Assembly (NCBI GenBank): GCA_964560005.1
Contig: CAZLKB010000001.1
Span: 157,216-221,215, forward strand
DNA length: 64,000 bases
Source of the DNA: an uncultured Gammaproteobacteria bacterium
GTDB taxonomy: Bacteria > Patescibacteriota > Patescibacteriia > Patescibacteriales > GWC2-42-12
Direction of reading: 5' to 3'
The notes under the pieces were generated by a model that was given only the letters and a program-made list of their open reading frames with translations, made no database searches and was not told the DNA's origin. This document shows positions 2,081 to 59,748 of this stretch, piece by piece. Numbering within the stretch: the stretch's first letter is position 1; the number at the start of each line of letters is the position of its first letter. The position numbers were made by a program, and so were the translations under genes.

Positions 2081-2285
2081 CTGGGCATAGTTTATTAAAT
2101 TTACGAACTCGCCCCGTTAAATAGGCTTCGCCCCCCCCGCAGGGATTTAACGGGGCGAGGACTGTTTGAGCCACCACTAGCTCATGATATTCACATCTGA
2201 ACAAAGCGTAAAGAGGAAAAAACAATCATAGAATAGCTGAACGGAAGCGAATTCCGCAGAAGTAAATTTAATAAACTATGCCCAG
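2081..2285. repeat. Long locus-specific foldback with nested GC-rich hairpin
   Basis: Outer arms ctgggcatagtttattaaatttac (2081-2104) / gtaaatttaataaactatgcccag (2262-2285); inner hairpin ctcgccccgttaaat (2108-2122) / atttaacggggcgag (2145-2159). Confidence 0.75.
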
Positions 2286-5727: not shown

Positions 5728-5799
5728 GGACAGTTAGCTCAATGGTAGAGCACTGCGTTTACATCGCAGGTGTTGCAGGTCCGAGTCCTGCACTGTCCA
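5728..5799 (+). tRNA. tRNA-Val (anticodon TAC)
   Basis: Acceptor ggacagt/actgtcc, anticodon stem ctgcg/cgcag with loop ttTACat; abuts the tsaE start codon at 5801. Confidence 0.85.
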
Positions 5800-5800
5800 C

Positions 5801-6226
5801 ATGATTTTTCTCTCTATTTCAGCAAAGCAAACCTTTAACTTCGCCGAAAAAATTTCTAAAAAATTAACCGGGGGCGAAGTTTTTGGGCTAATCGGTAATT
5901 TGGGCGCCGGTAAAACCATTTTTACCAAAGGCTTGGCCAAAGGCCTGGGCATTAAAAAAACCATTACCAGCCCAACCTTTATACTGATGCGCCCTTACCC
6001 GGTGAAGCACCCAAAAATCAAGCAGCTGGTACATATTGACGCTTATAGAATCGCCTCGCCTCGTGATCTTCTCGCTATCGGCTTTGAAGAATTGATCGGC
6101 CGGCCGGATACTGTTACGGTGATTGAATGGGCGGATAAAATAAAAAAAATCTTGCCGAAAAAAACAAGATTTATCACCATTACTCATAAACAGGATAACA
6201 CCAGATCTATAAAATTTCAAAAGTAA
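5801..6226 (+). CDS. tsaE: tRNA t6A37 biosynthesis ATPase TsaE
   Basis: GNLGAGKTIFTKGLAKGLGI....TSPTF...Y motif set typical of TsaE/YjeE. Confidence 0.85.
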   Translation: MIFLSISAKQTFNFAEKISKKLTGGEVFGLIGNLGAGKTIFTKGLAKGLGIKKTITSPTFILMRPYPVKHPKIKQLVHIDAYRIASPRDLLAIGFEELIGRPDTVTVIEWADKIKKILPKKTRFITITHKQDNTRSIKFQK

Positions 6227-6283: not shown

Positions 6284-6745
6284 TCAGGCTGATCCGGCCT
6301 GTTTTTTATAGGAAAGCATAATAAACAGCATAACGCCAAGCACTATCAGTACATCAGCGATATTAAATATGGTAAAATAAGCTAAATCAAAATAATCAAC
6401 CACCCAGCCATACCGCACCCGGTCAAAAAGATTACTGCTGGCGCCAAAAATTACCAGTGATAAAGACGCCCATTCAGCATATTCTCTCTTTTGATAATAG
6501 TATATAGCGAATATTATTAAGACTATAATAATTAACCAAATTATAACCGCCAGCCAAGTACCGGCTAGCGGCAGGGAAAAAGCGATATAATCGTTTGCCT
6601 GATAATTAAATTTAAACGCCTCTCCGATTAAATTAAACTCAAGATCTTTATCAGCTGCCGCGATAATCTTTAAAAAGCGGTCCAAACCAACAAAAAAAAT
6701 GATGGCAAGATAAATCGCTATCATTTTTTTTATAGTTAAGAGCAT
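6284..6745 (-). CDS. lspA: Lipoprotein signal peptidase II
   Basis: 4 TM; NLFDRVRYGWVVDYF and FNIADVLIVLG motifs. Confidence 0.85.
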   Translation of the reverse strand: MLLTIKKMIAIYLAIIFFVGLDRFLKIIAAADKDLEFNLIGEAFKFNYQANDYIAFSLPLAGTWLAVIIWLIIIVLIIFAIYYYQKREYAEWASLSLVIFGASSNLFDRVRYGWVVDYFDLAYFTIFNIADVLIVLGVMLFIMLSYKKQAGSA

Positions 6746-6752
6746 AAGTCGT

Positions 6753-7124
6753 CTAAGCCATTTTTTGCATCTTGATTTTACAACTAATACAGGTGTTGGC
6801 TACCGGCCTGGCCAGCAAACGCTTTTCTCCGATCTCTTTTTTACAATACTTGCAGATACCATAAGTGCCTTTTTTAATTCTATCCAAGGCATTACTAATA
6901 TCCCTAAGCGTGCTTTCTAAGACTTTTTCCGTAGCCAGGTTGGTGGTGTATTCATCAATTTCCTGCACATTCTCATCGCTTTTGTCGCCGTAGTTGGGAA
7001 ACTTGGTATGATGCTCATCTTTTTCATGCGCGTCTTTTTTGGTGAAACTTTTTAAGTCCTCCTCTACCTGCTTTTTCCTGGCTAGCAGATCTTTCTTGAT
7101 TTTTTCTATTATTTTCTTATCCAT
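6753..7124 (-). CDS. DksA/TraR-family C4 zinc-finger protein
   Basis: C-terminal CKYCKKEIGEKRLLARPVANTCISCK four-Cys finger preceded by a coiled-coil region. Confidence 0.75.
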   Translation of the reverse strand: MDKKIIEKIKKDLLARKKQVEEDLKSFTKKDAHEKDEHHTKFPNYGDKSDENVQEIDEYTTNLATEKVLESTLRDISNALDRIKKGTYGICKYCKKEIGEKRLLARPVANTCISCKIKMQKMA

Positions 7125-12541: not shown

Positions 12542-12964
12542 TTACTTAAGCGCGTTACTGAAAACATCAGCTATAACTTTAGTAATAGCGTAAGCGCCTA
12601 AAATCACAATCAGGCCCAAGACCGAACCGATGATAGTCTCTTTGGACTTGGTAATTTTCGCTTCATCTCCCTGCGCCAGCATCCAGCCGAATCCGGCCCA
12701 GACAATCAGGCAGAAAAAAATAACTCCGACAAAGGCTAAGATCGCGCCCACGACTTTTCCGATGATGGTCGGCAGATCGGTTTGACTGGTCTGTATGCCG
12801 CCTGTATTGGCCGTATTAACCAGGCCGCTTATCGCGCTATCCACTCCGTTCGCACCGGCCGCGAAAACTACCGGCGCCATTAGTAAAAAAAATATAACAA
12901 TCATTAGGCTGCAGAAAATTATACTATATTTTGAAGTTAAAGACATAGAAAGTTTAAAATGCAA
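12542..12964 (-). CDS. VirB2/TrbC-like pilin paralogue 8
   Basis: VWAGFGWMLAQGDEAKITKSKETIIGSVLGL. Confidence 0.6.
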   Translation of the reverse strand: MHFKLSMSLTSKYSIIFCSLMIVIFFLLMAPVVFAAGANGVDSAISGLVNTANTGGIQTSQTDLPTIIGKVVGAILAFVGVIFFCLIVWAGFGWMLAQGDEAKITKSKETIIGSVLGLIVILGAYAITKVIADVFSNALK

Positions 12965-13211
12965 AAATTAAAATGAAAAATGCTAGCTCCGCTAGCACCC
13001 CGCAGATGCGGGGTCATTGCAGAGCAATGACAATGCAAAATTCAAAATTAATAAATGATTTTACATTTTGAATTGTCATTTTGATTTTTGCATTTTACAT
13101 TTTTAACTTTTATCGCTACTCTGCCCGCGAGCCCAGGCTCCCGTTCAGAGTAGCGGTCCCCAATAAATTGAGGACGCGCTTTTCTCAACACCATACCGGT
13201 ATTGAGAATGA

Positions 13212-17411: not shown

Positions 17412-20354
17412 ATGACTATTTCCTATTCTTCCCGCAATATCAAATCGCCCCAAGAGTGGCGCCTAACCAAAAAAAAATATTTTTTAAATAAAAGAAGAAA
17501 AGCTTCGGCCGGTTTTAGTACCGGCGGAAAAATTAAAGAATACTCGGGTAAAAACCATAAGCCATTCAATCGAGCCAAGCTGGCTAAAATATTGTTTTAT
17601 GGATCCTTGGTTTTTATTCTTTTCTGCTTCGGCGCCTATCTTCAACTGACCCGCGACCTGCCCGACCCTAACCGCCTGATTGAGCGCCAAGTGGCTCAAA
17701 GCACAAAAATTTACGACCGCTCCGGCCAAACCGTGCTCTATGACATCCACGGGGCGGAAAAACGCACTATCATCAGCCTGAAAGATGTTCCGGATAACTT
17801 AAAAAACGCCACTATTTCCATAGAGGACAAAGATTTCTATAAACATGGCGGCTTCAGCCCTTGGGCGATTTTTAGAACCCTGGTAACCAATGTGCTCTTC
17901 GGCAAAAAAGCCGGCGGCTCCACCCTGACCCAGCAATTCATAAAAAATTCCATTCTAACCACGGAAAAACTTTATACCAGAAAAATCAAAGAAATTATTT
18001 TAGCCTACCGCTTGGAAAAAAAGTTTTCCAAAGATGAAATTCTGCAGATGTACTTTAACGAAATACCCTACGGCTCAACCGCTTACGGCGTAGAGGCGGC
18101 CAGCCAAAGATATTTCGGCAAAGCGGCGAGCGATTTAAATTTAGCCGAAGCCGCGGTCTTAGCCGCCATTCCCCAGGCGCCCAGCCGCTATTCGCCTTAC
18201 GGGCCGAATAAAGACCTGCTGATCGCGCGCCAGCAATATATTTTGGACTTAATGGTAAAATACGGCTATATTACCAAAGACCAAGCCGAAGAAGCGAAAC
18301 GGACGGAGCTCGCCTTTAAGACGCCGTCCGATAATATGCTGGCGCCGCATTTTGTCATGTACATTAAAGAAATGCTGTCGGATAAATACGGAGAAAAAAT
18401 GCTGGAACAGGGCGGCTTAAAAATTTACACCACCTTGGATTTGTATAAGCAAAATATCGCCGAAGAAGTTATTAAAGAAAAAACCGAACTTAACGAAAAA
18501 AATTATCAAGCCGCTAACGCGGCTTTGGTTTCCCTTGATCCGAAGACCGGACAAGTCTTGGCCATGGTCGGCTCGCGGGATTATTTTAATAATGAAATTG
18601 ACGGCCAGGTAAATGTGGCGCTTCAGCCGCGCCAGCCGGGCTCGTCTTTTAAGCCAATCGTCTACGCCGCTTCGTTCATAAAAGGCTATACGCCGGACAC
18701 CGTGCTTTATGATGTGGTGACCAATTTTTCTACCGACCCGGCCAAGCCCTATGAGCCGCATAACTATGATTCCAAAGAGCACGGCCCGGTAACGATTAGG
18801 CAGGCCTTGGCCGGATCCTTAAATATCCCGGCGGTCAAAACCATTTATTTAACCGGCATTGATAATGTCATCAGCCTGGCGCAAAATTTAGGCTATACAA
18901 CGCTTAACGACAAAAACCGCTTCGGCCTATCCCTGGTCTTGGGCGGCGGCGAAGTAAAGCTTATAGAGCACGCCAACGCTTTCAGCGCTTTCGCGCGCGA
19001 AGGCATTAAACACCCGCTGGCCTTTATTTTAAAAGTGGAAGACAAGGATGGTAAAATCCTGGAAGAATTTAAAAATCAAGACGAGAAAGTCTTAAACGGC
19101 AATACCGCGCGCCAAATTAACAGCGTTCTATCGGATAATAACGCCCGCGCTTATGTTTTCGGCGCCAACAACTCCCTAACGCTCGGCTCCAGGCCGGTAG
19201 CGGCCAAAACCGGCACCACCAACGACTACCGCGACGCCTGGACCATAGGCTATACCCCGTCAATCGTTACCGGCGTCTGGGTGGGCAATAACGACAATAC
19301 GGCGATGAAGCGCGGCGCCGACGGCTCAGTGGTGGCGGCGCCGATCTGGCATGATTATATGAACCGCGTTCTGGGCAATACGCCGATTGAATATTTCAAC
19401 GCGCCTGAATCGGCAAAAACCGGCAAGCCTGTATTGGACGGCGTGATTGACCCGGACACTACCGTAAAAATTGACAAATTCTCCGGATATTTAGCCAATG
19501 AATTTACGCCGCCGAGCGCTATCGTGGAAAAACAATTTAAACAAGTCCATAGTATCCTTTATTATATTGATAAGGATAATCCCGCCGGACCGGCGCCGGC
19601 CGATCCTAAAACCGATCCGCAATTTGACTTATGGGAAAACGCGGTTTCCGCCTGGGCGAAAAAGCAGGGCATAGTTAATTCCGCGCCGCCGACAGAGTTT
19701 GACAATATTCACCGGCCGCAATACCAGCCTATTGTCTCAATAGACTACCCGGCTAATAATCAGACCGTTGAAAATAAAACCCTGGAAGTCAGAATCAGCG
19801 CTCTGGCGACCAGCGGCGTCAGTCGGGCGGAATATTATATTGACGGTTATTTATTTGACACCATAACCGCCTCCCCTTTTAATCTTAGTAAATCCGTAAG
19901 TTTCTTGAATAACGGTTTTCACGGCTTAACCGTCAGGGTTTGCGACGCGGTAGATAATTGCAGCGAACAAAAAATTGAATTTAATTTAACCCAGAATACT
20001 AAGCCGGAAAAAACCGGTATTGGCATTGCTTTAACTCAACCCGCGGCCAACGCCAGTTTTATTAAATATGATTTTCCCTTATTACTAAAAGCCACTCTAA
20101 CCAATCCGGAACAAACCGCCGGCGTTACTTTCTTCTTGCGCGAAGCTTCGGACAATATTAAAACGATCGGGCAAGCCCAGCTTAAAGACGGCTCCGCCCT
20201 TGGCTGGCTTAACGAAATTTTAACTCCCGGCGCTTATAAGCTTTACGCCGAAGCCCACGGCTGGCAGGGCCAAACCGCCAAGAGTAAAGAGATTAATATA
20301 ACCATTAAAGACATGCCGGCAACCGCTACCACCACGCCTGCAATCGCCCAATAG
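17412..20354 (+). CDS. Class A penicillin-binding protein (PBP1A-type transglycosylase/transpeptidase) with C-terminal Ig-like domains
   Basis: GT51 motifs EDKDFYKHGG and GGSTLTQQ; transpeptidase motifs SSFKP, SLN and KTGTT; start codon uncertain. Confidence 0.9.
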   Translation: MTISYSSRNIKSPQEWRLTKKKYFLNKRRKASAGFSTGGKIKEYSGKNHKPFNRAKLAKILFYGSLVFILFCFGAYLQLTRDLPDPNRLIERQVAQSTKIYDRSGQTVLYDIHGAEKRTIISLKDVPDNLKNATISIEDKDFYKHGGFSPWAIFRTLVTNVLFGKKAGGSTLTQQFIKNSILTTEKLYTRKIKEIILAYRLEKKFSKDEILQMYFNEIPYGSTAYGVEAASQRYFGKAASDLNLAEAAVLAAIPQAPSRYSPYGPNKDLLIARQQYILDLMVKYGYITKDQAEEAKRTELAFKTPSDNMLAPHFVMYIKEMLSDKYGEKMLEQGGLKIYTTLDLYKQNIAEEVIKEKTELNEKNYQAANAALVSLDPKTGQVLAMVGSRDYFNNEIDGQVNVALQPRQPGSSFKPIVYAASFIKGYTPDTVLYDVVTNFSTDPAKPYEPHNYDSKEHGPVTIRQALAGSLNIPAVKTIYLTGIDNVISLAQNLGYTTLNDKNRFGLSLVLGGGEVKLIEHANAFSAFAREGIKHPLAFILKVEDKDGKILEEFKNQDEKVLNGNTARQINSVLSDNNARAYVFGANNSLTLGSRPVAAKTGTTNDYRDAWTIGYTPSIVTGVWVGNNDNTAMKRGADGSVVAAPIWHDYMNRVLGNTPIEYFNAPESAKTGKPVLDGVIDPDTTVKIDKFSGYLANEFTPPSAIVEKQFKQVHSILYYIDKDNPAGPAPADPKTDPQFDLWENAVSAWAKKQGIVNSAPPTEFDNIHRPQYQPIVSIDYPANNQTVENKTLEVRISALATSGVSRAEYYIDGYLFDTITASPFNLSKSVSFLNNGFHGLTVRVCDAVDNCSEQKIEFNLTQNTKPEKTGIGIALTQPAANASFIKYDFPLLLKATLTNPEQTAGVTFFLREASDNIKTIGQAQLKDGSALGWLNEILTPGAYKLYAEAHGWQGQTAKSKEINITIKDMPATATTTPAIAQ

Positions 20355-20430: not shown

Positions 20431-21633
20431 TTATTGCTTTATGGGCATTATAATATACAAATAGCTTTCGTCTTGTTCCGGCCGAATTAGGCAGGGAGTG
20501 TTGCCGTCTATTACTTCAATTTTAACCATCTCTTTTTCAATATTGCTTAATCCCTCAAGCAAGTAGCGATAATTAACCACCATGCTGTTTTCTTCGCCCG
20601 CCACCTTGGCCTGTAAATTAGTGATATTTTCTCCGGTTTGGCCGGAGACCGAGGATATTACCACCTGGTTTTTCCCGGCCGGAAAGTCCAGGTTTATATC
20701 ATTAATACCCGCTTTGGAAAACAAAGAAGCCATTTTTACCGCGCGAATCAATTCTTGGCGGTCAATTATAATTTTAGTCTTGCAATTAGTTGGAATAATT
20801 TGCTTATAATCCGGGTATTGGCCTTCAATCAGGCGAGAAACCAGCTCAACCGAGCCGTAAGTAAATAAAATCTGGTTGTCTGAAATATAAAATTTTATTT
20901 CCCGGCTGTTTTCCTCTACCTCGTCTTCCAGATTTATAGATAAAATTCTTAATAGCTCCTGCAGGGTTTTAGCCGGTACGATAATATTTTTTTCTTCTTG
21001 GCCGCCCGCCTGTGCCGGCGGGTTGGATTTATCCGGCGCTTTCTCTTGGGTGGCGCTGGATTTAATTTGGATTTTTTTCTCTGCCAAGCGATAACTGTCG
21101 GTGGCGGCCAGGGTTAAATAATCACCGGAAAACATAAATAAAACACCGGACAACTCCAGCCTGGTTTCGTTTAACGGAGCGGCAAAGATTACTTGGGAAA
21201 TCGCGTCTTTTAAGGCCGCGGCCTGGGCGCTGAAATAATTCTTCTTTTCCACTTCGGGAATTAAAGGAAAATCTTCAGCCGATTGCCCTTTAATTTTAGC
21301 TTGATAGTTTTCACAGTCAACCAAAATCTCGTTTTCTTTTTGGTTTAATCCTATTTTTTTATTCGGCAGCAAACTTATGCAATCTAAAATAATCTTTGAA
21401 TTAACCGTGAATACGCCCTCGGCCTCAATTTTCCCCCTAACCGCGCTGATTATGCCTATTTCTAAATTGGTCGCGGCTAGTTTTATTTTCCCCTCATCCA
21501 CTTTAATTAAGATATTGTTTAAAATCGGCAAGTTTACATTTTTTCCGGCTATATGGCTTACCAGCGCCAAGCCTTGTTTTAAATTTTCCTGCAAGCTGAA
21601 TATTTTAATTCCGTTAGATTTTTCGTTGTTCAT
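20431..21633 (-). CDS. dnaN: DNA polymerase III beta sliding clamp, with GC-rich in-frame insert
   Basis: 400 aa; LATNLEIGI, SGDYLTLAATDSYRLA, LIEGQYPDYKQIIP and C-terminal YLYIIMPI; extra segment SSATQEKAPDKSNPPAQAGGQEEK. Confidence 0.9.
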   Translation of the reverse strand: MNNEKSNGIKIFSLQENLKQGLALVSHIAGKNVNLPILNNILIKVDEGKIKLAATNLEIGIISAVRGKIEAEGVFTVNSKIILDCISLLPNKKIGLNQKENEILVDCENYQAKIKGQSAEDFPLIPEVEKKNYFSAQAAALKDAISQVIFAAPLNETRLELSGVLFMFSGDYLTLAATDSYRLAEKKIQIKSSATQEKAPDKSNPPAQAGGQEEKNIIVPAKTLQELLRILSINLEDEVEENSREIKFYISDNQILFTYGSVELVSRLIEGQYPDYKQIIPTNCKTKIIIDRQELIRAVKMASLFSKAGINDINLDFPAGKNQVVISSVSGQTGENITNLQAKVAGEENSMVVNYRYLLEGLSNIEKEMVKIEVIDGNTPCLIRPEQDESYLYIIMPIKQ

Positions 21634-21914
21634 ATTTTTTGCCCGCGTAGATTTAAAATCTTAATCTTACGGTTTTATTTTTATTAATTTAAATTAATAA
21701 TATAAATATAAATAAATGATAACAATAATATGCGGGTTGATGGGTTATTATTTAGATAAATTTTAGCTAAAATTATTATTAATTTTTATTTATTGGCTGT
21801 GTTTTGGTTGTTGAAAAGTAAATCAATTTAATGGGCAGAGGGTGTATAAAAACGTGGTTATAAAAATAAAAAATTAAACCTTCAACAACCTAACCACCGC
21901 CAATCACCAAATTA

Positions 21915-23273
21915 TTAACCGTTATAAATCAATTGTTTTATTGAATTGATGTTTTGCTTGGTGCGTTCATCTTCTTCGTATTCTTTAACGACTTTATTAT
22001 AGGCGTGCATGGCGGTAGTATGATCGCGGCCTCCGAGTTCCTGGCCGATTGAAGGATAAGACGAGTTTATTTCTTTTCTCATCAAAAACATGGCGATTTG
22101 CCTGGGGACCACCAATTCTTTTTTTCGGCTTTGCCCGACAATATCTTTTATATTAATATCAAAAAATTTGGAAACCGCTTCAATTATGGTTTTCGCTGTT
22201 GTAGATTTTGATTGAAAATTGGAAATAATGCCGGCCAAAACATTCTTGGTTGAGTCAATTGAAGGTAAAGAATTATTAAATTCATAATAGGCGATTAATC
22301 TATTAAGCGCCCCCTCAAGTTCGCGTATATTACTGGTAATATTATTAGCAATATAAGCCAAAATTTCTTTATCAAGCTTATAATTTTTTTCCTTGCACTT
22401 GGTTTCTAAAATTGCGATTCTGGTTTCAACATCCGGGGCGCCGATATCGGCGATCATGCCCCACTCAAAGCGCGAAAGCAGCCTTTTTTCCAGAGCCGGA
22501 ATAGCTTTGGGCGGGCGATCGGAAGAAATTACAATTTGACGGTTAGTTTGGTGCAGATCATTAAAAGTATGGAAAAATTCTTCTTGCGTGCCGTCTTTGC
22601 CGCCCATAAAATGGATATCGTCAATTAAAAGCAAATCAACATTGCGATAGCGGTCTTTAAAATCTTTGGCTTGGCCGTTTCTGACGGCTTGGATATAATC
22701 GTTGGTGAATTTTTCACAAGAAACATATAATATTTTTTCCGTTTTTTTGGACAATTCATGGCCGATCGCTTGGAGCAAGTGGGTCTTGCCCAAACCAACC
22801 CCGCCATAAATAAAAAGCGGGTTATAGGCGTGCCCGGGGTTGGCCGCCACCGCCTGGCTGGCCGCGTGAGCCAGCTCGTTATTTTTCCCCACGATAAAGC
22901 TGTCGAAAATATAGCGGTTATTTAAGCCAAAGCGGTTGATGGTTTTTGGCTTATTTTCAACGATATTTTCAGTTTTGGCATTTTTAATAAAACTACCGGG
23001 CAAGGCTTCTTTTCTAACCTCAACCTTGTATAAAATTTCTTTTACTTCCAGAGAACTAAGGTTCTTAAAGGCATTGGCAATTTCTTTGTGGTATTTTTTT
23101 TCTAGCCAGGCTTTAGTGAAAGTGTTGGGCACGCAAATAATTATTTGGCCGCCTTCATGGGAAGAGATAAAGGTGTTTTTAAACCAAGTGGTAAAATTAG
23201 CCTTAGATAAGGTTAGCTCGATTTCGCCTAAAACAGCTTGCCAAAGCTGTTCGTTGTTCATAATTTGGGGCAT
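21915..23273 (-). CDS. dnaA: Chromosomal replication initiator DnaA
   Basis: Walker A GGVGLGKTHL, LLIDDIHF, and C-terminal HTH region RDHTTAMHAYNKV. Confidence 0.95.
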   Translation of the reverse strand: MPQIMNNEQLWQAVLGEIELTLSKANFTTWFKNTFISSHEGGQIIICVPNTFTKAWLEKKYHKEIANAFKNLSSLEVKEILYKVEVRKEALPGSFIKNAKTENIVENKPKTINRFGLNNRYIFDSFIVGKNNELAHAASQAVAANPGHAYNPLFIYGGVGLGKTHLLQAIGHELSKKTEKILYVSCEKFTNDYIQAVRNGQAKDFKDRYRNVDLLLIDDIHFMGGKDGTQEEFFHTFNDLHQTNRQIVISSDRPPKAIPALEKRLLSRFEWGMIADIGAPDVETRIAILETKCKEKNYKLDKEILAYIANNITSNIRELEGALNRLIAYYEFNNSLPSIDSTKNVLAGIISNFQSKSTTAKTIIEAVSKFFDINIKDIVGQSRKKELVVPRQIAMFLMRKEINSSYPSIGQELGGRDHTTAMHAYNKVVKEYEEDERTKQNINSIKQLIYNG

Positions 23274-23289
23274 TATGATTGAATGTTAG

Positions 23290-23706
23290 CCAGCCTGGCT
23301 TTAAATATTTTTTCGGCAAAGGACATGTCTTGCCAAGTAAAAAATAAGAATATCGCCTGACTAGATCTATTTAAAAGTAACGAGAAAGCGTTTAATAATA
23401 TAATATTAAGATTTGGTTATTATAACAGTAATAAAAAAAATATCAAACAGTGGATAGTGTTTATAAGCTGTGAATAAATAGTGTAAAAAAACCAATAATA
23501 AATTAATCGGTTAAAAAAACCGGAGAATACTCCCCCGGTTTGACTTAAGGTGTTTTAAATGTTATGTTTTATTACAGAGATGAAAATTTATTATTTGCTT
23601 AAATTCAAATTCAGCATAGAAAAATAATAAATTAATTTCCTTCCGGCGATTAATATATTCCGCCGACTTTTTAGAGCGGATTTATTTAATAAGAACGAAC
23701 TTATCT
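23290..23706. other. Candidate oriC by position (dnaA | rpmH spacer); only degenerate DnaA boxes seen
   Basis: Divergent dnaA(-)/rpmH(+) junction; AT-rich; agtggatag (23449-23457) and tgtgaataa (23469-23477) each deviate from TGTGGATAA. The AT-rich dnaA-dnaN spacer 21634-21914 is an alternative. Confidence 0.3.
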
Positions 23707-23844
23707 ATGCCAAAAAGAACTTATCAGCCGAACAAAAAAAGAGCCAAAAGAAAACACGGCTTTAGAAGACGCATGCTCTCTAAAAACGGGCGGGCGGTTT
23801 TAAAAAGAAGAAAAGCGCGGGGCAGGAAGAGGCTGACTAAATAA
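23707..23844 (+). CDS. rpmH: 50S ribosomal protein L34 (not in the ORF track, 45 aa)
   Basis: Hand translation gives [45 protein letters not shown]; sits directly upstream of rnpA. Confidence 0.9.
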
Positions 23845-23845
23845 T

Positions 23846-24464: not shown

Positions 24465-24610
24465 GTTGGGCGGGAAGATTGGTTTTAAGAGCATGCAAAA
24501 TTGTAACTATTTTTCTCTCAAAATTACTCAATCCAAGTTTAATGGTTAATAATTTTGAGAGAAAAATACACAAATTTTGTCTAAACGAAAAACCAATCTT
24601 CCCGCCCAAC
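24465..24610. repeat. Foldback element family, copy A (inverted relative to B and C)
   Basis: Perfect 22-bp outer stem gttgggcgggaagattggtttt/aaaaccaatcttcccgcccaac; conserved core gcatgcaaaattgt (24491-24504) and caaattttgtctaaacgaa. Confidence 0.75.
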
Positions 24611-25383: not shown

Positions 25384-25559
25384 TTAGTAAAAAGCCTTAG
25401 ATTTATTGCTCACTCGAGAAAAATTTAGGGATTTGGCCTAAAATTTCCAACAAAATTTTTATCTGAAACGGCCGAAAGAAAATATTTGTAAGGTAATTTT
25501 AGACCAAATCTAATCCTAAATTTTTCTATGCTCGCAATAAAGCTAAGGCTTTTTACTAA
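25384..25559. repeat. Long (~65-nt arms) locus-specific foldback
   Basis: ttagtaaaaagccttagatttattgc... pairs with ...gcaataaagctaaggctttttactaa; lies between yidC(+) and 25576-26325(-). Confidence 0.7.
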
Positions 25560-30117: not shown

Positions 30118-30275
30118 TGAGGCAAAGATATTAGTTTATCCACCCGCTTTCGCGAGTGCTAAAGGCCGGCAAAATTTGTGTATTTTTTCTTAAAATTATA
30201 TTATATTGGGTCTGGATAATTTTAAGAAAAAATAATACAATTTTGCATGCGCTCTAAACTAATATCTTTGCCTCA
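30118..30275. repeat. Foldback element family, copy B
   Basis: Perfect 21-bp outer stem tgaggcaaagatattagttta/taaactaatatctttgcctca; apical attgggtctggataatttta (30205-30224); acaattttgcatgc (30237-30250). Confidence 0.75.
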
Positions 30276-33485: not shown

Positions 33486-33755
33486 ATGACACTAAATATA
33501 ACCTTGCAGGCTTTATCCGATCCGACCAGGCGTAAAATTCTGGAGCTTTTGAAAAAGAAAGATTTGGCGGCCGGTGAAATCGCCAAGAATTTTGCTATAA
33601 CCCTGCCTTCGCTGTCGCACCATTTAAATGTTTTAAAGCAAGCTGATTTGGTAACCAGCCAAAGGCAGGGCCAGGAGATAATTTATTCGTTGAATTTAAG
33701 CGTGTTTGAGGAAATCGCGGAAAAACTGGTAAAATTTTTTAAAAATAAATCATAG
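33486..33755 (+). CDS. ArsR/SmtB-family transcriptional regulator (SdpR-like)
   Basis: LSDPTRRKILELL....L.AGEIA..F.ITLPSLSHHLNVLKQADLV winged-HTH pattern. Confidence 0.85.
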   Translation: MTLNITLQALSDPTRRKILELLKKKDLAAGEIAKNFAITLPSLSHHLNVLKQADLVTSQRQGQEIIYSLNLSVFEEIAEKLVKFFKNKS

Positions 33756-33764
33756 CGGTTATTA

Positions 33765-33955
33765 TTAAGGGCAGTTGCTTAAAATTATAAATTTTTTCAC
33801 TGCGGAACTCGCCCACACCATTTTTTATGTTCCCTTTGAAAAGTATTTCTAAAGCTAAAGGATGAAAATAATAATAACCTGGGACATGGGACAAAAATGG
33901 TGGGGGCTCGAACAATCCTCGTTTCAAAAATTTATAATTATAAGCAACTGCCTAA
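33765..33955. repeat. Locus-specific foldback inserted between the SdpR-like and SdpI-like genes
   Basis: ttaagggcagttgcttaaaattataaattttt ... aaaaatttataattataagcaactgcctaa with a ~130-nt partly GC-rich interior. Confidence 0.7.
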
Positions 33956-33971
33956 TGTAAACCTTAAACTT

Positions 33972-34646
33972 ATGTCTAATCCAATCAAGTCAACCATAAA
34001 AACCGAATTTATTCCTTTGGCCTTAATTATTTTAATGGCCGTATCAGCTGTTTATTTCTATAATAATTTGCCGGCTCGCGTAGCTACGCACTGGAATATC
34101 GCCGGCCAGGTTGACGGCTACGGTTCGGGTCAAGCGCAGGCATTGGCTTTGCCCTTAGTGGCCGTTGGCATGTATCTATTGTTCCTATTACTGCCTTATT
34201 TAGACCCGAAGAAGGATCGTTATGAGCAATTCAGCAAGGTTTATCACACCTTTAAGGCTATAATTTTGGCTTTATTGACTGTGATTTATTTTATTATCGC
34301 CTTAAACGGTTTGGGTTATAATTTGCCGGTAGGCATAATCATGCCCGGATTAATCGGCCTGTTATTTATTATCATCATAGGGAACTATATGGGCAAGATA
34401 AAAATGAATTGGTTTATGGGAATACGCACGCCCTGGACTTTGTCCAGCGAAAATGTTTGGAATAAAACCCATCGTTTTGGCGGCAAGATGTTTATTCTGG
34501 CCGGCTTGCTGATGATTGCGGAAATCGTTTTACCGATAAGCTGGAAATTACCGATTTTCATAATTATGATGGTTATGCTATTGTTCGGAACAATAGGCTA
34601 TTCTTATATTGTGTATTTACAGGAGAAGAGAAATAAGGGTTTATAA
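33972..34646 (+). CDS. SdpI/YhfL-family membrane protein (DUF1648 + SdpI domains)
   Basis: LPARVATHWNIAGQVDGYGS, then GNYMGKIKMNWFMGIRTPWTLSSENVWNKTHRFGGK; start moved to MSNPIKST. Confidence 0.75.
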   Translation: MSNPIKSTIKTEFIPLALIILMAVSAVYFYNNLPARVATHWNIAGQVDGYGSGQAQALALPLVAVGMYLLFLLLPYLDPKKDRYEQFSKVYHTFKAIILALLTVIYFIIALNGLGYNLPVGIIMPGLIGLLFIIIIGNYMGKIKMNWFMGIRTPWTLSSENVWNKTHRFGGKMFILAGLLMIAEIVLPISWKLPIFIIMMVMLLFGTIGYSYIVYLQEKRNKGL

Positions 34647-34687
34647 AGTTTGTAAAGTTTAATTATTTTGATAACTTTGAAAATGAA

Positions 34688-34831
34688 GCAGTCTGACAGG
34701 AGAATTAATTTTTCGCTTAGACAAAATTTGGGTGTTTTTTATTAAAATTAAAATAAATTGGGTCTGGATAATTTTAATAAAAAACACTACAATTTTGCAT
34801 GCGCAAAAAATTAATTCTCCTGTCAGACTGC
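34688..34831. repeat. Foldback element family, copy C
   Basis: Perfect 26-bp outer stem gcagtctgacaggagaattaattttt/aaaaattaattctcctgtcagactgc; apical attgggtctggataatttta (34757-34776); acaattttgcatgc (34789-34802). Confidence 0.75.
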
Positions 34832-34851
34832 TCGAGTTTATATAAAAAAAT

Positions 34852-35640
34852 ATGTCTATAAAAATAGAAAGTTTGGCTAATGAAAAAATTAAAAATATAG
34901 TTAAACTGCGAGAATCAAGCCGCGAGCGGAAAGCGCAGGGGCTATTTTTAATTGAGGGGCATAGGGAAATAACTCTGGCTCAACAGGGCGGCGTCGAACT
35001 GGAAAGTTTAATCTATTGCCCGGAATATATCAAAAGGGAAATGACGATTGATATTGACGAAGAAAAAATTTTCGAAGTTACGGAGAAAGTTTTTAATAAA
35101 ATTTCTTACCGGGAAAATCCGGACGGTCTTTTGGCAGTGGCGAAAATCAGGAAATTTGAGCTCGAAGATATTGAACTTAGCGCCGATCCTCTGATTATAG
35201 TTTTAGAAGCGGTGGAGAAACCCGGGAATTTAGGAGCAATTTTGCGAACGGCCGATGCCGCGGCAGTTGATATGGTGATCATCAATGATTCTAAAACCGA
35301 TATTTATAACCCCAATGTAATCCGGGCCAGCCAGGGCGCGGTTTTCACCATAAACGTGGTTTTAAGTACATTTGAGGAAACGTTGGATTTTTGCAAAAAA
35401 AATAAACTTAGAATTTTCGCCTCAACCCCCGAGGCAAAAATAAATTATACCGAGGCAGATTACGGGCCGGGCTGCGCCATAGTCATGGGCGCCGAGGACA
35501 AGGGATTAAGCCAGGCCTGGCTGATCGAGGCGGATGAAAAAATAAAAATTGGCATGAGAGGAAAGATTGACTCTTTGAACGTATCGGTTAGCGCGGCCAT
35601 AATTTTATTCGAGGCTTTAAGGCAACGAAAGATTGGGTAA
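34852..35640 (+). CDS. TrmH/SpoU-family RNA 2'-O-methyltransferase
   Basis: VEKPGNLGAILRTADAAAV, GAEDKGLS, IPM-like MRGKIDSLNVSVSAAIILFE. Confidence 0.85.
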   Translation: MSIKIESLANEKIKNIVKLRESSRERKAQGLFLIEGHREITLAQQGGVELESLIYCPEYIKREMTIDIDEEKIFEVTEKVFNKISYRENPDGLLAVAKIRKFELEDIELSADPLIIVLEAVEKPGNLGAILRTADAAAVDMVIINDSKTDIYNPNVIRASQGAVFTINVVLSTFEETLDFCKKNKLRIFASTPEAKINYTEADYGPGCAIVMGAEDKGLSQAWLIEADEKIKIGMRGKIDSLNVSVSAAIILFEALRQRKIG

Positions 35641-35759: not shown

Positions 35760-35833
35760 GGGGTGGTAGCTCAATTGGTTAGAGCGCTGCCCTGTCACGG
35801 CAGAGGTCGCGGGTTCGAGTCCCGTCCATCCCG
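35760..35833 (+). tRNA. tRNA-Asp (anticodon GTC)
   Basis: ggggtggtagctcaattggttagagcgctgccctGTCacggcagaggtcgcgggttcgagtcccgtccatcccg. Confidence 0.85.
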
Positions 35834-35836
35834 CAA

Positions 35837-35872
35837 AAAAGATAAAGCCCCCTTCGGGGCTTTATCTTTTTT
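35837..35872. terminator. Terminator hairpin after tRNA-Asp
   Basis: aaaagataaagcccc-ttcg-ggggctttatctttttt. Confidence 0.75.
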
Positions 35873-37504: not shown

Positions 37505-37544
37505 AAAACAAAACACCTCGCCGGATGGCGAGGTGTTTTGTTTT
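37505..37544. terminator. Bidirectional terminator (18-bp stem)
   Basis: aaaacaaaacacctcgcc-ggat-ggcgaggtgttttgtttt between convergent genes. Confidence 0.8.
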
Positions 37545-38893: not shown

Positions 38894-39137
38894 ATGCGTT
38901 TTAGTTAACTACGGATAGTAGTCTGGTTATATTAAGATCTTATATTAAGGTGGTTGTAAAACTATTCCTGGCGATAATTCGCTATTTTAGACCAAAACAT
39001 CGTTTGACTGGCGCTAAATGATTTTTTTCGTAATTATTTACTGTTAAAATCATTTAGTTTGTCTTTTTTGCTTGGTCAATAAATATCTAATTTAGCCATG
39101 AAATAGTTTTATAACCACCTCATGATTTTTAAATTTC

Positions 39138-41542: not shown

Positions 41543-42067
41543 ATGGCCCATATTTTACTCCCGAAACAAATTACGTCTCTACAAGAAACTTTGGCCGCGG
41601 CGCATCACGACTACGAGAAAGGTCTTAACGCACGCTCATTTTTCAAGGTACCCGACCGTGCTATCAGTGAAGACTTGGTACAAGAAACTTTTATGAAAAC
41701 CTGGCGCTACCTCGTTAGAGGCGGCAAAATTGACATAATGAAGGCCTTTCTCTATCACATTTTGAATAACTTGATCGTTGATGAATATCGCAAGCGCAAA
41801 ACCGTCTCGCTGGATATTCTTAGCGAAAAAGGCTTTATACCGAGCCACGATCATTCCGTGCGCTTGATAAATGTTTTGGACGGGAAGGCGGCATTACTCT
41901 TGATTCAAGACCTGCCCGAAAAATATAAAAAGGTGATGTGCATGCGGTATGTGCAAAATTTGTCGCTCAAAGAAATGTCTCTTATAACCGGACAGTCAAA
42001 AAACGCCATCGCCGTGCAGGCCCATAGAGGACTCGTAAAGCTTAAATTATTGTATCATCAAGCATAA
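41543..42067 (+). CDS. ECF-type sigma-70 family RNA polymerase sigma factor
   Basis: Region 2 DLVQETFMKTWRYL...LYHILNNLIVDEYRKRK; region 4 LPEKYKKVMCMRYVQNLSLKEMSLITGQSKNAIAVQAHRGLVKLK. Confidence 0.8.
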   Translation: MAHILLPKQITSLQETLAAAHHDYEKGLNARSFFKVPDRAISEDLVQETFMKTWRYLVRGGKIDIMKAFLYHILNNLIVDEYRKRKTVSLDILSEKGFIPSHDHSVRLINVLDGKAALLLIQDLPEKYKKVMCMRYVQNLSLKEMSLITGQSKNAIAVQAHRGLVKLKLLYHQA

Positions 42068-42204
42068 ATGAAAATCGCCGGCCTGTGCCCGCGGTTTTTT
42101 TTAAATAAAAAAAGCCGCGTTCTTATTGACGCGGCTGTGTTTTTATTTGTTATCAGCTCGGGGTTGATTAGTATTGGGGAACGAAGACGACCCTTCTTAT
42201 GCCA

Positions 42205-43755
42205 TCAATGTCGGAAATGCCGGAAGCCGGTAAAGACCATGGCCATGTCACGGTTATTAGCGGCGGCAATAACTTCGTCATCGCGCACCGAACCGCCGGG
42301 TTGAATGGCCGCGGTGGCGCCGGCCTCGGCGGCGGCAATCAGGCCGTCAGGGAAGGGGAAGAAGGCGTCGCTCGCTACCACACTGCCTTTAAGCGACAGC
42401 CCGGCTTTGCCCGCTTTCCAGACCGCGATTTCACTGGAGTCAACGCGGCTCATCTGGCCGGCACCGATGCCCAGCGTGCGGTCTTCGCCCGCGTATACGA
42501 TAGCGTTAGACTTTACATGCTTCACCACCCGCCAGCCAAAAAGCATGGCCCTAAGTTCCGCCGATGTCGGACGGCGCACGGTCGCATATTTTACATTTTC
42601 AGAGGTGGTGAAGTGTAGGTCATTCTCCTGGAGTAGGAAGGAATCCGCGCCTACGCTGCGAAGGTTCCGGGCCAGGGATTCGCGCATGGGCCGGAGCAGT
42701 TCTATCAATCGTAGATGTTTCTTCTTCCGCAGGATTTCTAGAGCGTCCGGCGTAAAACCCGGCGCTACGATAACCTCGGAGAAAATCTCGCTGATCGCCT
42801 CGGCACAGTCGGCGTCGAGCGGTTTGTTGACCGCGATGATGCCCCCGTAAGGCGCTTGCTGGTCGGTGGCGTACGCCTTATCCCAAGCTTCACGCAGAGT
42901 ACCGGCACGGCCGACGCCGCAGGGATTGGTGTGTTTTAAAATTACCAAGGTCGGCCCGTCGTAGGCGAATTCGCCGATGAGCCCAGCCGCGGAGGTGAGA
43001 TCCAGGATGTTGTTGTAGGAAAGTTCTTTGCCATGGAGTTGCTTAAAGAACGAACTAAATCGGCCGTACAGAGCGGCCTTCTGGTGCGGATTCTCTCCAT
43101 AGCGCAGGGGTTGAACTAGCGGAGCTTGGATGAACAGATGATTTGGCAGATCCCTTGATGCGTTACGGAAGGTTCGGCCGAGATATTCGGCGATGGCGCC
43201 GTCGTAGGCGGCGGTGCGCTCAAATACTTTCGCGGCCAGCTGGCGGCGCAGTTCCAGGGTGGTTTCACCGGTCGCCTTAATTTGTTCCGCGACCTCGGCG
43301 TAATCGGCCGGATCCACTACCACCGTGACGCTTTCATGGTTTTTGGCCGCGCTTCGAAGCATGGCCGGACCGCCGATGTCAATGTTTTCAATGGCTTTGG
43401 CCAGAGTGGCGTCTGGGTTGGCAATGGTCTGTTCAAAGGGATAGAGGTTGACCACCACCAGATCAATCGGCAGAATGCCGTGTTCCTTGGCGACGGCCTC
43501 ATGTTGGGGATTGCCGCGAATAAAGAGCAGGCCGCCATGCGCTTTGGGGTGGAGTGTTTTGACGCGGCCGCCCAGTATTTCCGGAAAGCCGGTATAAGCG
43601 CTAAGATCCGTGACCGTCAGGCCGGCCTCGCGCAGGGCTTTGGCAGTACCGCCGGTGGAAATGATTTCTATGCCAGCTTCGATTAATGCCTTGGCAAGGG
43701 GTAGTAAGCCGGTTTTATCGGAAACCGAAAGAAGTGCTCGTAATATTCTGTTCAT
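42205..43755 (-). CDS. purH: Bifunctional AICAR transformylase / IMP cyclohydrolase
   Basis: [12 protein letters not shown]...STGGTAKAL...[13 protein letters not shown]...VVVNLYPF; C-terminal FFPFPDG; conspicuously GC-rich. Confidence 0.9.
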
Positions 43756-43862
43756 GCTGTATCTCCGTTGTTGATGTTTGTTGATGTTTTATGAGGAATG
43801 ACTTGTTTTAAGGTACATCCTCCCGTGCGGTAAGATTAGAAAAAATCAACCATAAAGTCAAG

Positions 43863-43972
43863 TTAATCTCGTAACTCGCAACTCGTAACTCGCAACTCAT
43901 CTTTTTCGGTGTGCAGATTATCTAATTACGCATTTGAGTTATGAGCTATGGGTTACGAGTTGCGAGATAATT
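43863..43972. repeat. Word-repeat palindrome (AACTCG/TAACTCG units) in the purH/ychF divergent region
   Basis: ttaatctcgtaactcgcaactcgtaactcgcaactcat ... atgagctatgggttacgagttgcgagataatt. Confidence 0.65.
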
Positions 43973-44031
43973 AAATCTCTGCTAAATTCAAGATAGAATA
44001 ATAATATGGATTGCACTAGTTAATGATTATA

Positions 44032-44144
44032 GTTTTGGCTAAATTCATTTATTTTTTCGCTGCGGATCAAATTCATTATGTGCCGGCCGGTCATTCCGTT
44101 CGGCTGAGCTCACGACGAAGCCTCGCTTCAAAAATAAATGAATT
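44032..44144. repeat. Locus-specific foldback with GC-rich interior
   Basis: gttttggctaaattcatttattttt / aaaaataaatgaatttagccaaaac (25-bp arms); the interior contains ccggtcattccg. Confidence 0.7.
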
Positions 44145-44232
44145 TAGCCAAAACTTTACGATTGCAACTCGCATTATTTATAATAATATAACCTCCCCTA
44201 GCCCCTCCTTGTCATGAGGGGAACCATAATTT

Positions 44233-46825: not shown

Positions 46826-46910
46826 TATCATTCACATTTAAGAAAAAATAAGGTTGGTTGGTTGCGTATTTTATTGGTGATTTTGGGGTCTAATAAAGAG
46901 AACTTAGTAT

Positions 46911-46947
46911 TATAAAACATCCTTGGTTAAGCCAAGGATGTTTTATA
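46911..46947. terminator. Bidirectional terminator
   Basis: tataaaacatccttgg-ttaag-ccaaggatgttttata between convergent genes. Confidence 0.8.
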
Positions 46948-46999
46948 AATATTATTTTATAGATGAACTAAATATTTTTTTCTATTTTTATCTGGCAAA

Positions 47000-48322: not shown

Positions 48323-48456
48323 CCCACAAATCTACAAATTAGCTACAAATATTACGAATAAGTATAATGCGAATACTGCAAATTATCTGCCGGCTAGTTG
48401 GGCGAATGCCGCAAATAGTATTTGTAGTATTTGTAGCTAATTTGTAGATTTGTGGG
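48323..48456. repeat. 134-nt AT-rich word palindrome (CTACAAAT words) immediately upstream of the 47000-48313 start
   Basis: cccacaaatctacaaattagctacaaatattacgaata ... tatttgtagtatttgtagctaatttgtagatttgtggg. Confidence 0.7.
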
Positions 48457-49407: not shown

Positions 49408-49866
49408 ATGAATTTAAACAAAGCCATGATCATTGGCAATTTGACCAGAGATCCGGAAATTAGAACTACGCCGACTGGCAAGACGGTAGCTTCTTTTTCC
49501 GTGGCTACCAATTTCGTTTGGACGGATCAATCGGGCCAAAAGCGGGAAAAAGCCGAATTTCATAATATTGTTGCCTGGGCGAGGTTGGCGGAAATTTGCG
49601 GCCAGTATTTAAAAAAGGGAGCTAAAATTTACCTGGAAGGCAGACTGCAGACCCGTGACTGGGTCGGCCAGGATAATGTTAAGCGCTACCGCACGGAGAT
49701 TATCGCCGAGAATATGATTATGCTTGATCGCGCCGGCAGTTCGGCCAGCCGCAATGAACAGCCGCCTATGCCAAGCGAGCCGGTAATAAATGTTGAAGAG
49801 GCTGCCAGCGCGCCGGAAGAGGGCGCCAGCGAAGAAGAAATCAGAGTAGAAAATATACCGTTTTAA
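49408..49866 (+). CDS. ssb: Single-stranded DNA-binding protein
   Basis: MNLNKAMIIGNLTRDPEIRTTPTGKTVASFSVATN...FHNIVAWARLAE; acidic tail EEEIRVENIPF; start moved from 49387. Confidence 0.9.
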   Translation: MNLNKAMIIGNLTRDPEIRTTPTGKTVASFSVATNFVWTDQSGQKREKAEFHNIVAWARLAEICGQYLKKGAKIYLEGRLQTRDWVGQDNVKRYRTEIIAENMIMLDRAGSSASRNEQPPMPSEPVINVEEAASAPEEGASEEEIRVENIPF

Positions 49867-49875
49867 TAATTATAA

Positions 49876-49950
49876 TTCAAATACTACAAAAAATAATGCC
49901 AATACTACAAATATTCGTAGTATTCGTGTGCCATTTGTAGAATTCGTATT
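49876..49950. repeat. TACTACAAA-word palindrome inside the rpsF-ssb-rpsR cluster
   Basis: caaatactacaaaaaataatgccaatactacaaatattcgtagtattcgtgtgccatttgtagaattcgtatt; same word family as 504-598. Confidence 0.65.
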
Positions 49951-59703: not shown

Positions 59704-59748
59704 AAAACAAAAACACCGCATCGTTGAGTCCGGCGGCGTTTTTGTTTT
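59704..59748. terminator. Long hairpin, probable terminator of the upstream minus-strand operon
   Basis: aaaacaaaaacaccgc-atcgttgagtccg-gcggcgtttttgtttt. Confidence 0.6.

Follow-up and report, generated by a model that had tools for sequence, protein, structure and literature searches.

What can be learned from a 64-kb stretch of genomic DNA (hereafter the window) about the hairpins that fill several of its intergenic spacers? Judged by the names that homologues bear, the host of the window is a Falkowbacteria-like bacterium of the candidate phyla radiation (CPR, or Patescibacteria), and three of its foldbacks, here named A, B and C, belong to a dispersed non-coding repeat of about 140-160 bp that had not been described before. 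Members of this family are dispersed, come and go in the short spacers that separate housekeeping genes, carry their outer arms along with their core, keep strict Watson-Crick pairing, are mosaic in make-up and leave no target duplication. These properties are best explained, and we think probably explained, by a mobile foldback repeat resembling transposable elements of the miniature inverted-repeat type (MITEs), REPINs and enterobacterial repetitive intergenic consensus (ERIC) sequences, in which the whole hairpin is the unit and is required at the level of DNA, most likely as the folded single-stranded or cruciform substrate of an enzyme supplied in trans. The three copies, and the parts of copy B, are the following.

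24465-24610, minus strand: copy A, 146 nt long, a foldback in the yidD-yidC spacer whose perfect arms measure 22 bp, GTTGGGCGGGAAGATTGGTTTT; covariance-model score 142.5 bits.
30118-30275, plus strand: copy B, a 158-nt foldback in the spacer between an S-adenosylmethionine (SAM)-methyltransferase gene and the gene of a 129-aa membrane protein; covariance-model score 127.6 bits.
30118-30138, plus strand: left outer arm of B, TGAGGCAAAGATATTAGTTTA, pairing perfectly with 30255-30275.
30141-30158, plus strand: small, GC-rich side hairpin of B, CACCCGCTTTCGCGAGTG, recognised in alignments and in the fold.
30169-30252, plus strand: conserved core of B, with helix 2 (CAAAATT/AATTTTG), internal loops, covarying inner helix, apex and the invariant TACAATTTTG.
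30255-30275, plus strand: right outer arm of B, TAAACTAATATCTTTGCCTCA.
34687-34832, plus strand: copy C, a 146-nt foldback in the spacer between an SdpI-like gene and a SpoU-methylase gene, with 27-bp perfect arms; covariance-model score 147.7 bits.

All sequences that an earlier note on this DNA had quoted for the three copies were found at the places it gave for them. The 20-mer ATTGGGTCTGGATAATTTTA, located in the apex of B at 30205-30224, has its only exact matches in B and C (chance expectation, 0.05 matches), and ACAATTTTGCATGC is exact in each of the three copies, in A on the minus strand. Perfect pairing of the outer arms, as described, holds over 22 bp in A and 21 bp in B; in C it covers 27 bp, one more than had been reported. 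The inner stems are likewise complementary within each copy, and an independent inverted-repeat scan recovered perfect 19-bp inner stems beside the outer arms. Each copy folds as a single rod, with an RNA free energy of -60 to -74 kcal/mol (z-scores of -12.6 to -16.7 relative to shuffles); folded as DNA, copy B reaches -42 kcal/mol (z-score -10.8). The location of all three in spacers between plus-strand genes was also borne out, and these spacers are almost completely filled: the hairpins lie 8-40 nt from the upstream stop codon and 19-25 nt from the next start codon, the core of A, on the minus strand, being antisense to the flanking genes. The side hairpin is confined to copy B, where it stands in for a stretch of the left junction, TCGCTTAGA elsewhere in the family; it looks like a nested insertion.

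Only one other assembly, the 2987-nt Logan contig SRR12133404_43014 (L001), contains the window's exact methyltransferase protein, and it stops 127 nt past the methyltransferase gene, that is, within element B. Foldbacks of this kind probably break short-read assemblies.

The family extends well beyond the window. A metagenome scan with the pattern CAAAATTTGNGNNTTTTTN{35,65}TACAATTTTG yielded 16 further loci, 12 of them distinct, with the full architecture present in every one (related loci carry L numbers in the following). A covariance model built from 16 copies scored all of these at 98-155 bits and recovered three additional copies: L017 2419-2567, L018 2006-2104, which is cut by the contig end, and a short form of 114 nt, L006 10958-11071. 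The family thereby comprises more than 16 distinct copies, its members measuring 137-158 bp. At ten loci that were compared the flanks share no homology, so these copies reside at different loci. A scan of genome contigs with CAAAATTTGN{55,85}ACAATTTTGCATGC gave only two chance matches, the pattern being too specific; the GCATGC variant is peculiar to the window, with GTATGC in most copies. Viral contigs and phage records contained no match to the family. Searched against Rfam at the gathering score, the whole window returned six tRNAs only, and a permissive Rfam search of 33700-34900 returned only sub-threshold, generic plant microRNA hairpin models, the best at 45.7 bits against a gathering score of 71. 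Literature searches on palindromic repeats or MITEs of CPR bacteria, Patescibacteria and Parcubacteria brought up no account of repeats of this type.

The consensus structure is a rod of conserved, covarying and variable segments. Its base consists of a GC-rich clamp followed by an AT-rich basal stem that closes in T4-5:A4-5, the basal helix amounting to about 23 bp; above it, a small loop of mismatched pyrimidines is followed by a mini-helix of 2-3 bp that covaries (CGC:GCG). The middle is formed by a conserved asymmetric internal loop, TTAGA opposite YAT, and by the near-invariant helix 2, CAAAATT/AATTTTG, and the tip by a second internal loop, the covarying inner helix and a variable apex. 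On inspection, the TTAGA/YAT loop misfits the consensus of a K-turn or other named RNA motif. In the 16-sequence alignment, 95.5% of the cells are paired, as opposed to 77.5% after shuffling and at most 57.6% when the partners are slid; double-sided changes are found in 127 cells against an expectation of 38.7, and none of 500 shuffles reached the observed pairing values. Changes on both sides affect 21 of the 23 pairs of the basal helix, and double changes occur even in helix 2, with CA..TG turned into TG..CA in L006 10958 and C..G into T..A in L017 2419. With these pairing statistics and with double changes in a helix that had passed for invariant, the covariation proposed in the earlier note is correct and stronger than it had been put, and the copies make up a genuine family in which the core is conserved, the stems covary and the basal helix varies freely in sequence but stays paired.

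Is this structure maintained as RNA or as DNA? Strong covariation in every helix, including the double changes in helix 2, would be expected of a structured RNA with a function for the host, such as an RNase III site, an mRNA-stability element or a small RNA, whose helices and loops are kept by selection on the transcript. The asymmetric internal loops, conserved in all copies, the location of copies within apparently co-transcribed strings of genes, and a core that is 88% identical at the shared C site in two genomes speak for the same explanation. The mismatches, however, do not. Among roughly 390 base pairs of the basal helices of 16 distinct copies there are only eight, three of them G-T, four A-C and one T-C, and counts on the alignment are about five G-U and about eight A-C. 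Since every A-C mismatch becomes a G-U wobble when the opposite strand is read, the wobble tolerance of an RNA helix is seen on neither strand, and on neither is G-U enriched over A-C. Furthermore, both orientations occur, nine copies being sense and four antisense relative to co-directional genes; most sites are occupied in one lineage only; no Rfam family exceeds its threshold; and there is neither a U-run after the hairpin nor a conserved -35 element upstream of the invariant TACAAT. We therefore consider a host-serving RNA unlikely, if still worth keeping in mind. The missing wobble preference, the two orientations and the high turnover between relatives favour a mobile element that acts at the level of DNA.

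The elements do not have the form of an intrinsic terminator, a short GC-rich hairpin with a U-run directly behind it: no terminator-like site was called at A, B or C, and the sequences that follow these hairpins (TACTTTTAAT, GATTAAAAAA and CGAGTTTATA) have no T-run. In the terminators of this genome the apex is GC-rich and the A and T runs lie outside, the reverse of what is found in the foldback arms. A promoter with TACAAT as the -10 box and TAGACA or TGGATA as the -35 element was considered and rejected, the mean best -35 score being 2.9 over 18 copies compared with a background of 2.5. Ordinary terminator-type hairpins are found in the window at 35835-35872, 37505-37544, 46910-46948 and 59704-59748; they have perfect stems of 15-18 bp, loops of 4-13 nt, and a bidirectional design in which an A-run faces a T-run across the hairpin, and the first of them directly follows a tRNA gene (35760-35833).

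The invariant TACAAT also bears on a different idea, in which the arms are inverted repeats that flip an asymmetric, promoter-bearing core and are kept identical by recombining with each other. TACAAT does resemble a -10 box, a weak TGGATA lies 17 nt upstream of it in B and C, both orientations of the element exist, and homogenisation of the arms is to be expected where inverted repeats recombine. Still, such an invertible switch is very improbable. The -35 element is not conserved across copies, and the interior is itself a continuous hairpin, for which a switch has no need. In addition, a given locus has the same orientation in several samples (L006/L007/L008/L019/L023; L017/L024; L011/L013), and the same holds for pairs of copies that share a site, which are C and its counterpart L004C, the second-family foldback F6 and its counterpart in L004, and L009 and L013.

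The outer arms were previously held to be completely unrelated between copies, a view that the larger set of sequences overturns. Arms of 16 distinct copies align to one loose family consensus, approximately GCCGGRCAAAGATTTTAGTTTTT (22 nt), with a base consensus of GCCGGRC...GYCCGGC, which the arms of B and A fit loosely. Arms at unrelated loci reach identities of 80-95%; taken over L015, L021, L018, L022, L006 and L004C, which lie at different loci, the range is 74-95%. The arm of B groups with these six, that of A resembles the arm of L009, and L016, L020 and L017a represent another type. The three copies in the window carry three diverged arm types; between copies, arm identity drops to about 21-45%, and conservation of the element is lowest at its outer ends. 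As the same arms are met at unrelated loci, they must have come with the element itself and were not copied from target DNA. This contradicts an inverted duplication of the target, one of the mechanisms that the earlier note had entertained, since L015, L018, L021, L022, L004 and L006 have the same arms of about 22 nt at loci that are unrelated. Its argument that a transposon would display the opposite pattern, with constant ends and a variable interior, also fails, because the arms are part of the moving unit and diverge fast.

Arms and apical parts have not always travelled together. L015 and L021 agree in 92% of the arms and 41% of the loop, C of the window and L015 in 45% and 91%, and L010 and L014 in about 55% and 97%, respectively; on a single contig, the copies L017 9261 and L017 2419 have nearly identical cores and different arms. 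Discordance between arm and apex in both directions suggests recombination or gene conversion between copies, with exchanges across the conserved core segments. At the very ends, pairing in four of six consensus-arm copies, a small sample, does not stop at the conserved GCCGG terminus but takes in another 2-3 bp of locus-specific sequence, with AAT/ATT, TT/AA, ACT/AGT and GTT/AAC as the added pairs; the chance of such an extension is estimated at about 6% per copy. The copies listed for it are the following.

L015, 1239-1388: copy with pairing past GCCGG.
L021, 1422-1576: copy with pairing past GCCGG.
L004, 6629-6783: copy with pairing past GCCGG.
L022, 1645-1797: copy with pairing past GCCGG.

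The extension could stem from insertion into short palindromic targets or from outward growth of the palindrome. It would also suit a scenario in which the core alone moves, while the outer stem is made locally, by inverted duplication of the target or by outward palindrome growth through template switching. Near-identical cores and loops with dissimilar arms, as in L010/L014 and in L017a/L017b on one contig, can be read in the same way. Yet the full 22-nt arm is common to six copies at unrelated loci, all arm types fit one loose consensus, the empty orthologous spacers contain no convincing homologue of a single arm, and the discordance of arms and cores, which runs both ways, is better accounted for by recombination between copies. 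Local manufacture of the arms thus appears decidedly improbable.

The order of the genes around the foldbacks is kept in related genomes. It is rnpA, yidD, copy A, yidC, the further foldback F4 and the diacylglycerol-kinase gene in the first part; trxB, rnhB, the methyltransferase gene, copy B, the gene of the 129-aa membrane protein and yraN in the second; and a helix-turn-helix (HTH) gene, F6, the SdpI-like gene, copy C and the SpoU-methylase gene in the third. At the B site, the spacer measures 1 nt in L025, 3 nt in L027 and L006, 29 nt in L004 and 33 nt in a JGI contig, the two closest relatives having 1-3 nt; it measures 8-24 nt at the A site and 27-59 nt at the F4 site. The A, B and F4 sites are occupied in the window only, and two other spacers, one from the diacylglycerol-kinase gene to the bactofilin gene and one from the 129-aa-protein gene to yraN, are occupied in L006 only and empty in the window. 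The B-site spacer of L004 was considered as a footprint or single-arm homologue and dismissed, the similarity being too weak in AT-rich sequence.

These short spacers leave scarcely any likelihood to the proposal, also entertained in the earlier note, that the core had entered the loops of palindromes or terminators already present between genes. The genome does possess perfect terminator hairpins of 17-18 bp with loops of 4-5 nt (35835-35872, 37505-37544 and 46910-46948). However, the orthologous spacers of A, B and F4, 1-59 nt long and mostly below 35 nt, hold no palindrome and could not have fitted one, which would need 42-54 nt; moreover, the polarity of the terminators is the reverse of that of the foldback arms, and the arms are common to different loci.

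How, then, might such an element spread and stay paired? In the account that we favour, the unit that multiplies and moves would be the whole hairpin with its outer arms, and this hairpin, single-stranded or extruded as a cruciform, would serve as the substrate of a putative structure-specific transposase or recombinase acting in trans. Only well-paired copies would then keep multiplying, which would amount to selection on the element itself. Instead of this, or besides it, arm-to-arm conversion, template switching or hairpin repair may restore the match between the arms; correction of quasipalindromes and conversion between palindrome arms are established processes. If RNase III were to cut operon transcripts or mRNAs were to change in stability, these or any other consequences for the host would be secondary. 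Between closely related arm pairs, compensated double changes make up most of the differences (ratios of 5:1, 3:1 and 2:0), a pattern that independent point mutation cannot yield. In the clear ortholog pair L009 and L013, by contrast, the arm changes are all uncompensated. Symmetrisation in place is thus not general and, as regards resident copies, the pattern favours selection of well-paired copies.

Several observations weigh against a mobile element of this kind, the uncompensated changes in L009 and L013 among them. No transposase or recombinase was recognised among the 20 open reading frames of the window that were scanned; the analysis as a whole covered the 64 kb of the window and about 150 kb of related loci. 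A search for target-site duplications in 17 copies detected no direct repeat of at least 4 nt, even when the boundaries were shifted, a result equal to that of the mismatched-flank control, and no defined or conserved termini exist across copies. Nor did we find a filled and an empty site in near-identical strains, the homologues of the glycosyltransferase that flanks L015 being at most 77% identical. Some elements, furthermore, persist: the C site and the F6 site hold elements of the same family in both the window and L004. At the C site, the copy of L004 (L004C; 6632-6781) and C of the window are identical in 58% of the arms, 52% of the loop and 88% of the core, so that either replacement or conversion has affected one of the two since their split, or arm evolution was exceptionally rapid. 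F6 looks orthologous in the two genomes, with arms that are 89% identical, an interior that can be aligned and three compensated arm changes. Persistence of the conserved core and internal loops at apparently orthologous sites could reflect selection at the level of the host, for example on an RNA function.

A, B and C are part of a larger population. The window contains nine foldbacks with arms of 21-29 bp, which represent at least four families and add up to 1,416 nt, or 2.2% of the window. Besides the three copies described above, they are as follows.

2081-2285, minus strand: F1, a 205-nt foldback with 24-bp perfect arms.
12955-13097, no strand assigned: F2, with 22-bp arms around a multi-branch interior of small GC-rich hairpins.
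25384-25559, plus strand: F4, a 176-nt foldback between convergent yidC and the diacylglycerol-kinase gene; covariance-model score 53.9 bits, E 2.6e-9.
33770-33952, plus strand: F6, a second-family foldback, T5-TCRCTGCGGAACTCGCC ... GGCTCAAACARTCCTCGYTTC-A5, with 27-bp arms.
44031-44155, plus strand: F8, which shares its junction with F6 (TTTTTTCGCTGCGGA ... CCTCGCTTCAAAAA) and has perfect arms of 26 bp.
48323-48456, no strand assigned: F9, of another family, with conserved arms of CTACRAAT repeats.

F4 is distantly related to the core of A/B/C (TCACTCGAGAAAAATTTAGGGATTT ... CCTAAATTTTTCTATGCTC); its sister copy lies at L017 6413-6614, and the two carry a recognisably homologous core, TCRCTNRAGAAAAATTTAGGGATTT ... 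CCTAAATTTTTCWATGCTC. The second family consists of F6, F8, F1 and copies in L004, L006, L011, L015 and L021, and its arms again covary. F1 belongs here by the F6-family motifs CTGCGGAATTCGC and GGCTCAAACAGTCCTCGC on the minus strand of its interior, and the copy at the F6 site of L004 occupies 5730-5912. A pattern scan of the related loci for the F6 motif gave no match, the pattern being too strict. For F9, a near-identical arm pair exists at L025 1689-1768, which is a different locus. Inverted arrays of CTACRAAT/ATTYGTAG match 12 times in the window against 4.4 expected and cluster at three places (504-598, 48323-48456 and 49866-49940); unlike the A/B/C arms, the arms of this family are nearly identical between the window and L025.

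Small GC-rich hairpins of about 15-20 nt are nested in larger AT-rich foldbacks at 30141-30158, 12981-13030 and 2100-2160; they read CACCCGCTTTCGCGAGTG in B and GCTAGCTCCGCTAGC, CCCCGCAGATGCGGGG and TCATTGCAGAGCAATGA in F2, and similar ones are seen in L011 and L017. They may constitute a further class of tiny inserted palindromes. Between two minus-strand genes, at 38948-39120, there is an imperfect foldback of 173 nt with 40-nt arms that are 75% complementary, which may be an old, decayed element.

The A/B/C and F6 families both have a T-run, a TCRCT junction and a covarying mini-helix of 2-3 bp, and this resemblance may point to a common basal module with different apical parts. Taken a step further, A/B/C, F4 and F6/F8/F1 might all belong to one superfamily built on a common "hairpin chassis", defined by a basal stem whose sequence is free, a conserved mismatch junction (T5-TCRCT ... 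CTC/TTC-A5 with the covarying mini-helix) and exchangeable apical cargo. Its movement, in the form of folded single-stranded DNA, would be the work of a CPR enzyme guided by structure and unpaired bases and not by terminal sequence, with regeneration or correction of one arm from the other keeping the arms matched; the recognition logic of integron attC sites would thereby be carried over to a dispersed transposable element. We put this forward as a speculation whose prospects we rate as slim.

Part of this population lies close to where replication of the chromosome may start. The window covers the dnaN-dnaA region, in which the following genes are placed.

20431-21633, minus strand: dnaN.
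21915-23273, minus strand: dnaA.

Next to them on the plus strand are rnpA, yidD and yidC (window 20431-23845). The cumulative GC skew has its minimum near 20-22 kb, and gene orientation switches at the same place; a replication origin region within 20431-23845 is probable. The gap between dnaN and dnaA contains an imperfect foldback that is 81% complementary (21785-21911). Elsewhere in the window, G+C rises to 0.49 at 18001-20000 and 0.54 at 42001-44000 from an average of about 0.40, and these stretches coincide with the gene of a penicillin-binding protein and with the purH (AICARFT/IMPCHase) gene.

The family is of a known general kind, the bacterial intergenic palindromic repeat, from which it is set apart by a basal stem that changes fast and yet is perfectly paired, by the reassortment of modules and by its unexpected abundance in a streamlined CPR genome. 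The genomes of CPR bacteria are small and tightly packed, and here a foldback content of 2.2% sits near the probable replication origin, in spacers that measure no more than 1-59 nt in relatives; the repeats would document active selfish or semi-domesticated DNA in streamlined, uncultivated bacteria. In practice, the foldbacks could be used as markers for strain typing and would account for some assembly breaks. More generally, the family offers a clean natural case of a DNA hairpin that stays perfectly paired in spite of sequence drift and reassortment of modules, and the moving enzyme, if found, could represent a new structure-guided activity of DNA insertion.

Among known systems, the attC sites of integrons are similar in being recombination-type hairpins of 60-150 nt between co-directional genes, with a variable apical part, and in that structure and a few unpaired bases outweigh the sequence of the stem. 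Their RYYYAAC/GTTRRRY boxes at the base of the hairpin are absent from the family, however, and attC sites are organised in cassette arrays by an integrase gene, whereas the repeats are located among syntenic housekeeping genes (rnpA-yidD-yidC, trxB-rnhB and others). The ends of copy A, GTTGGGC...GCCCAAC, were examined for attC identity and rejected, as the order is reversed relative to attC and the other copies are without the motif. Classical MITEs, such as Correia/NEMIS, RUP and Nezha, are equally small, non-coding, multi-copy and intergenic, form a long hairpin and may be co-transcribed with their neighbours. They have conserved terminal inverted repeats that match an insertion sequence, as well as target-site duplications (PMC11602168). 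In the family, the terminal repeats are not conserved among copies and a target-site duplication is absent.

ERIC sequences, or intergenic repeat units (IRU), are imperfect palindromes of about 127 bp in enterobacteria, which occur in transcribed intergenic regions in either orientation and vary in their presence at orthologous sites. The family resembles them in its conserved central inverted repeat, in its occurrence in either orientation and in its variable occupancy between species; it differs in that there is no sequence similarity and that ERIC arms are not known to be kept perfectly Watson-Crick paired. ERIC-like repeats of Yersinia duplicate a TA target, in contrast to the family, where no duplication was found. 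REPINs, which are thought to act as single-stranded DNA hairpins, are likewise non-coding hairpin repeats, of about 100 nt, with many extragenic copies in both orientations and without classical terminal inverted repeats or target-site duplications. They are moved by RAYT transposases (Y1 HUH enzymes), whose associated single-copy gene is flanked by the repeats; no such enzyme was seen among the 20 scanned reading frames of the window. In REPINs, compensatory changes keep the hairpin paired (PMC3116915), and the same is true of the family. Its layout is nevertheless the reverse: in REPINs the ends, repetitive extragenic palindromic (REP) 16- to 25-mers, are conserved and the spacer is variable, whereas here the middle of the stem is conserved (TTAGACAAAATTTG ... 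TACAATTTTGYATGC) and the ends vary; and while REPINs reside in proteobacteria, the host of this family is a CPR bacterium.

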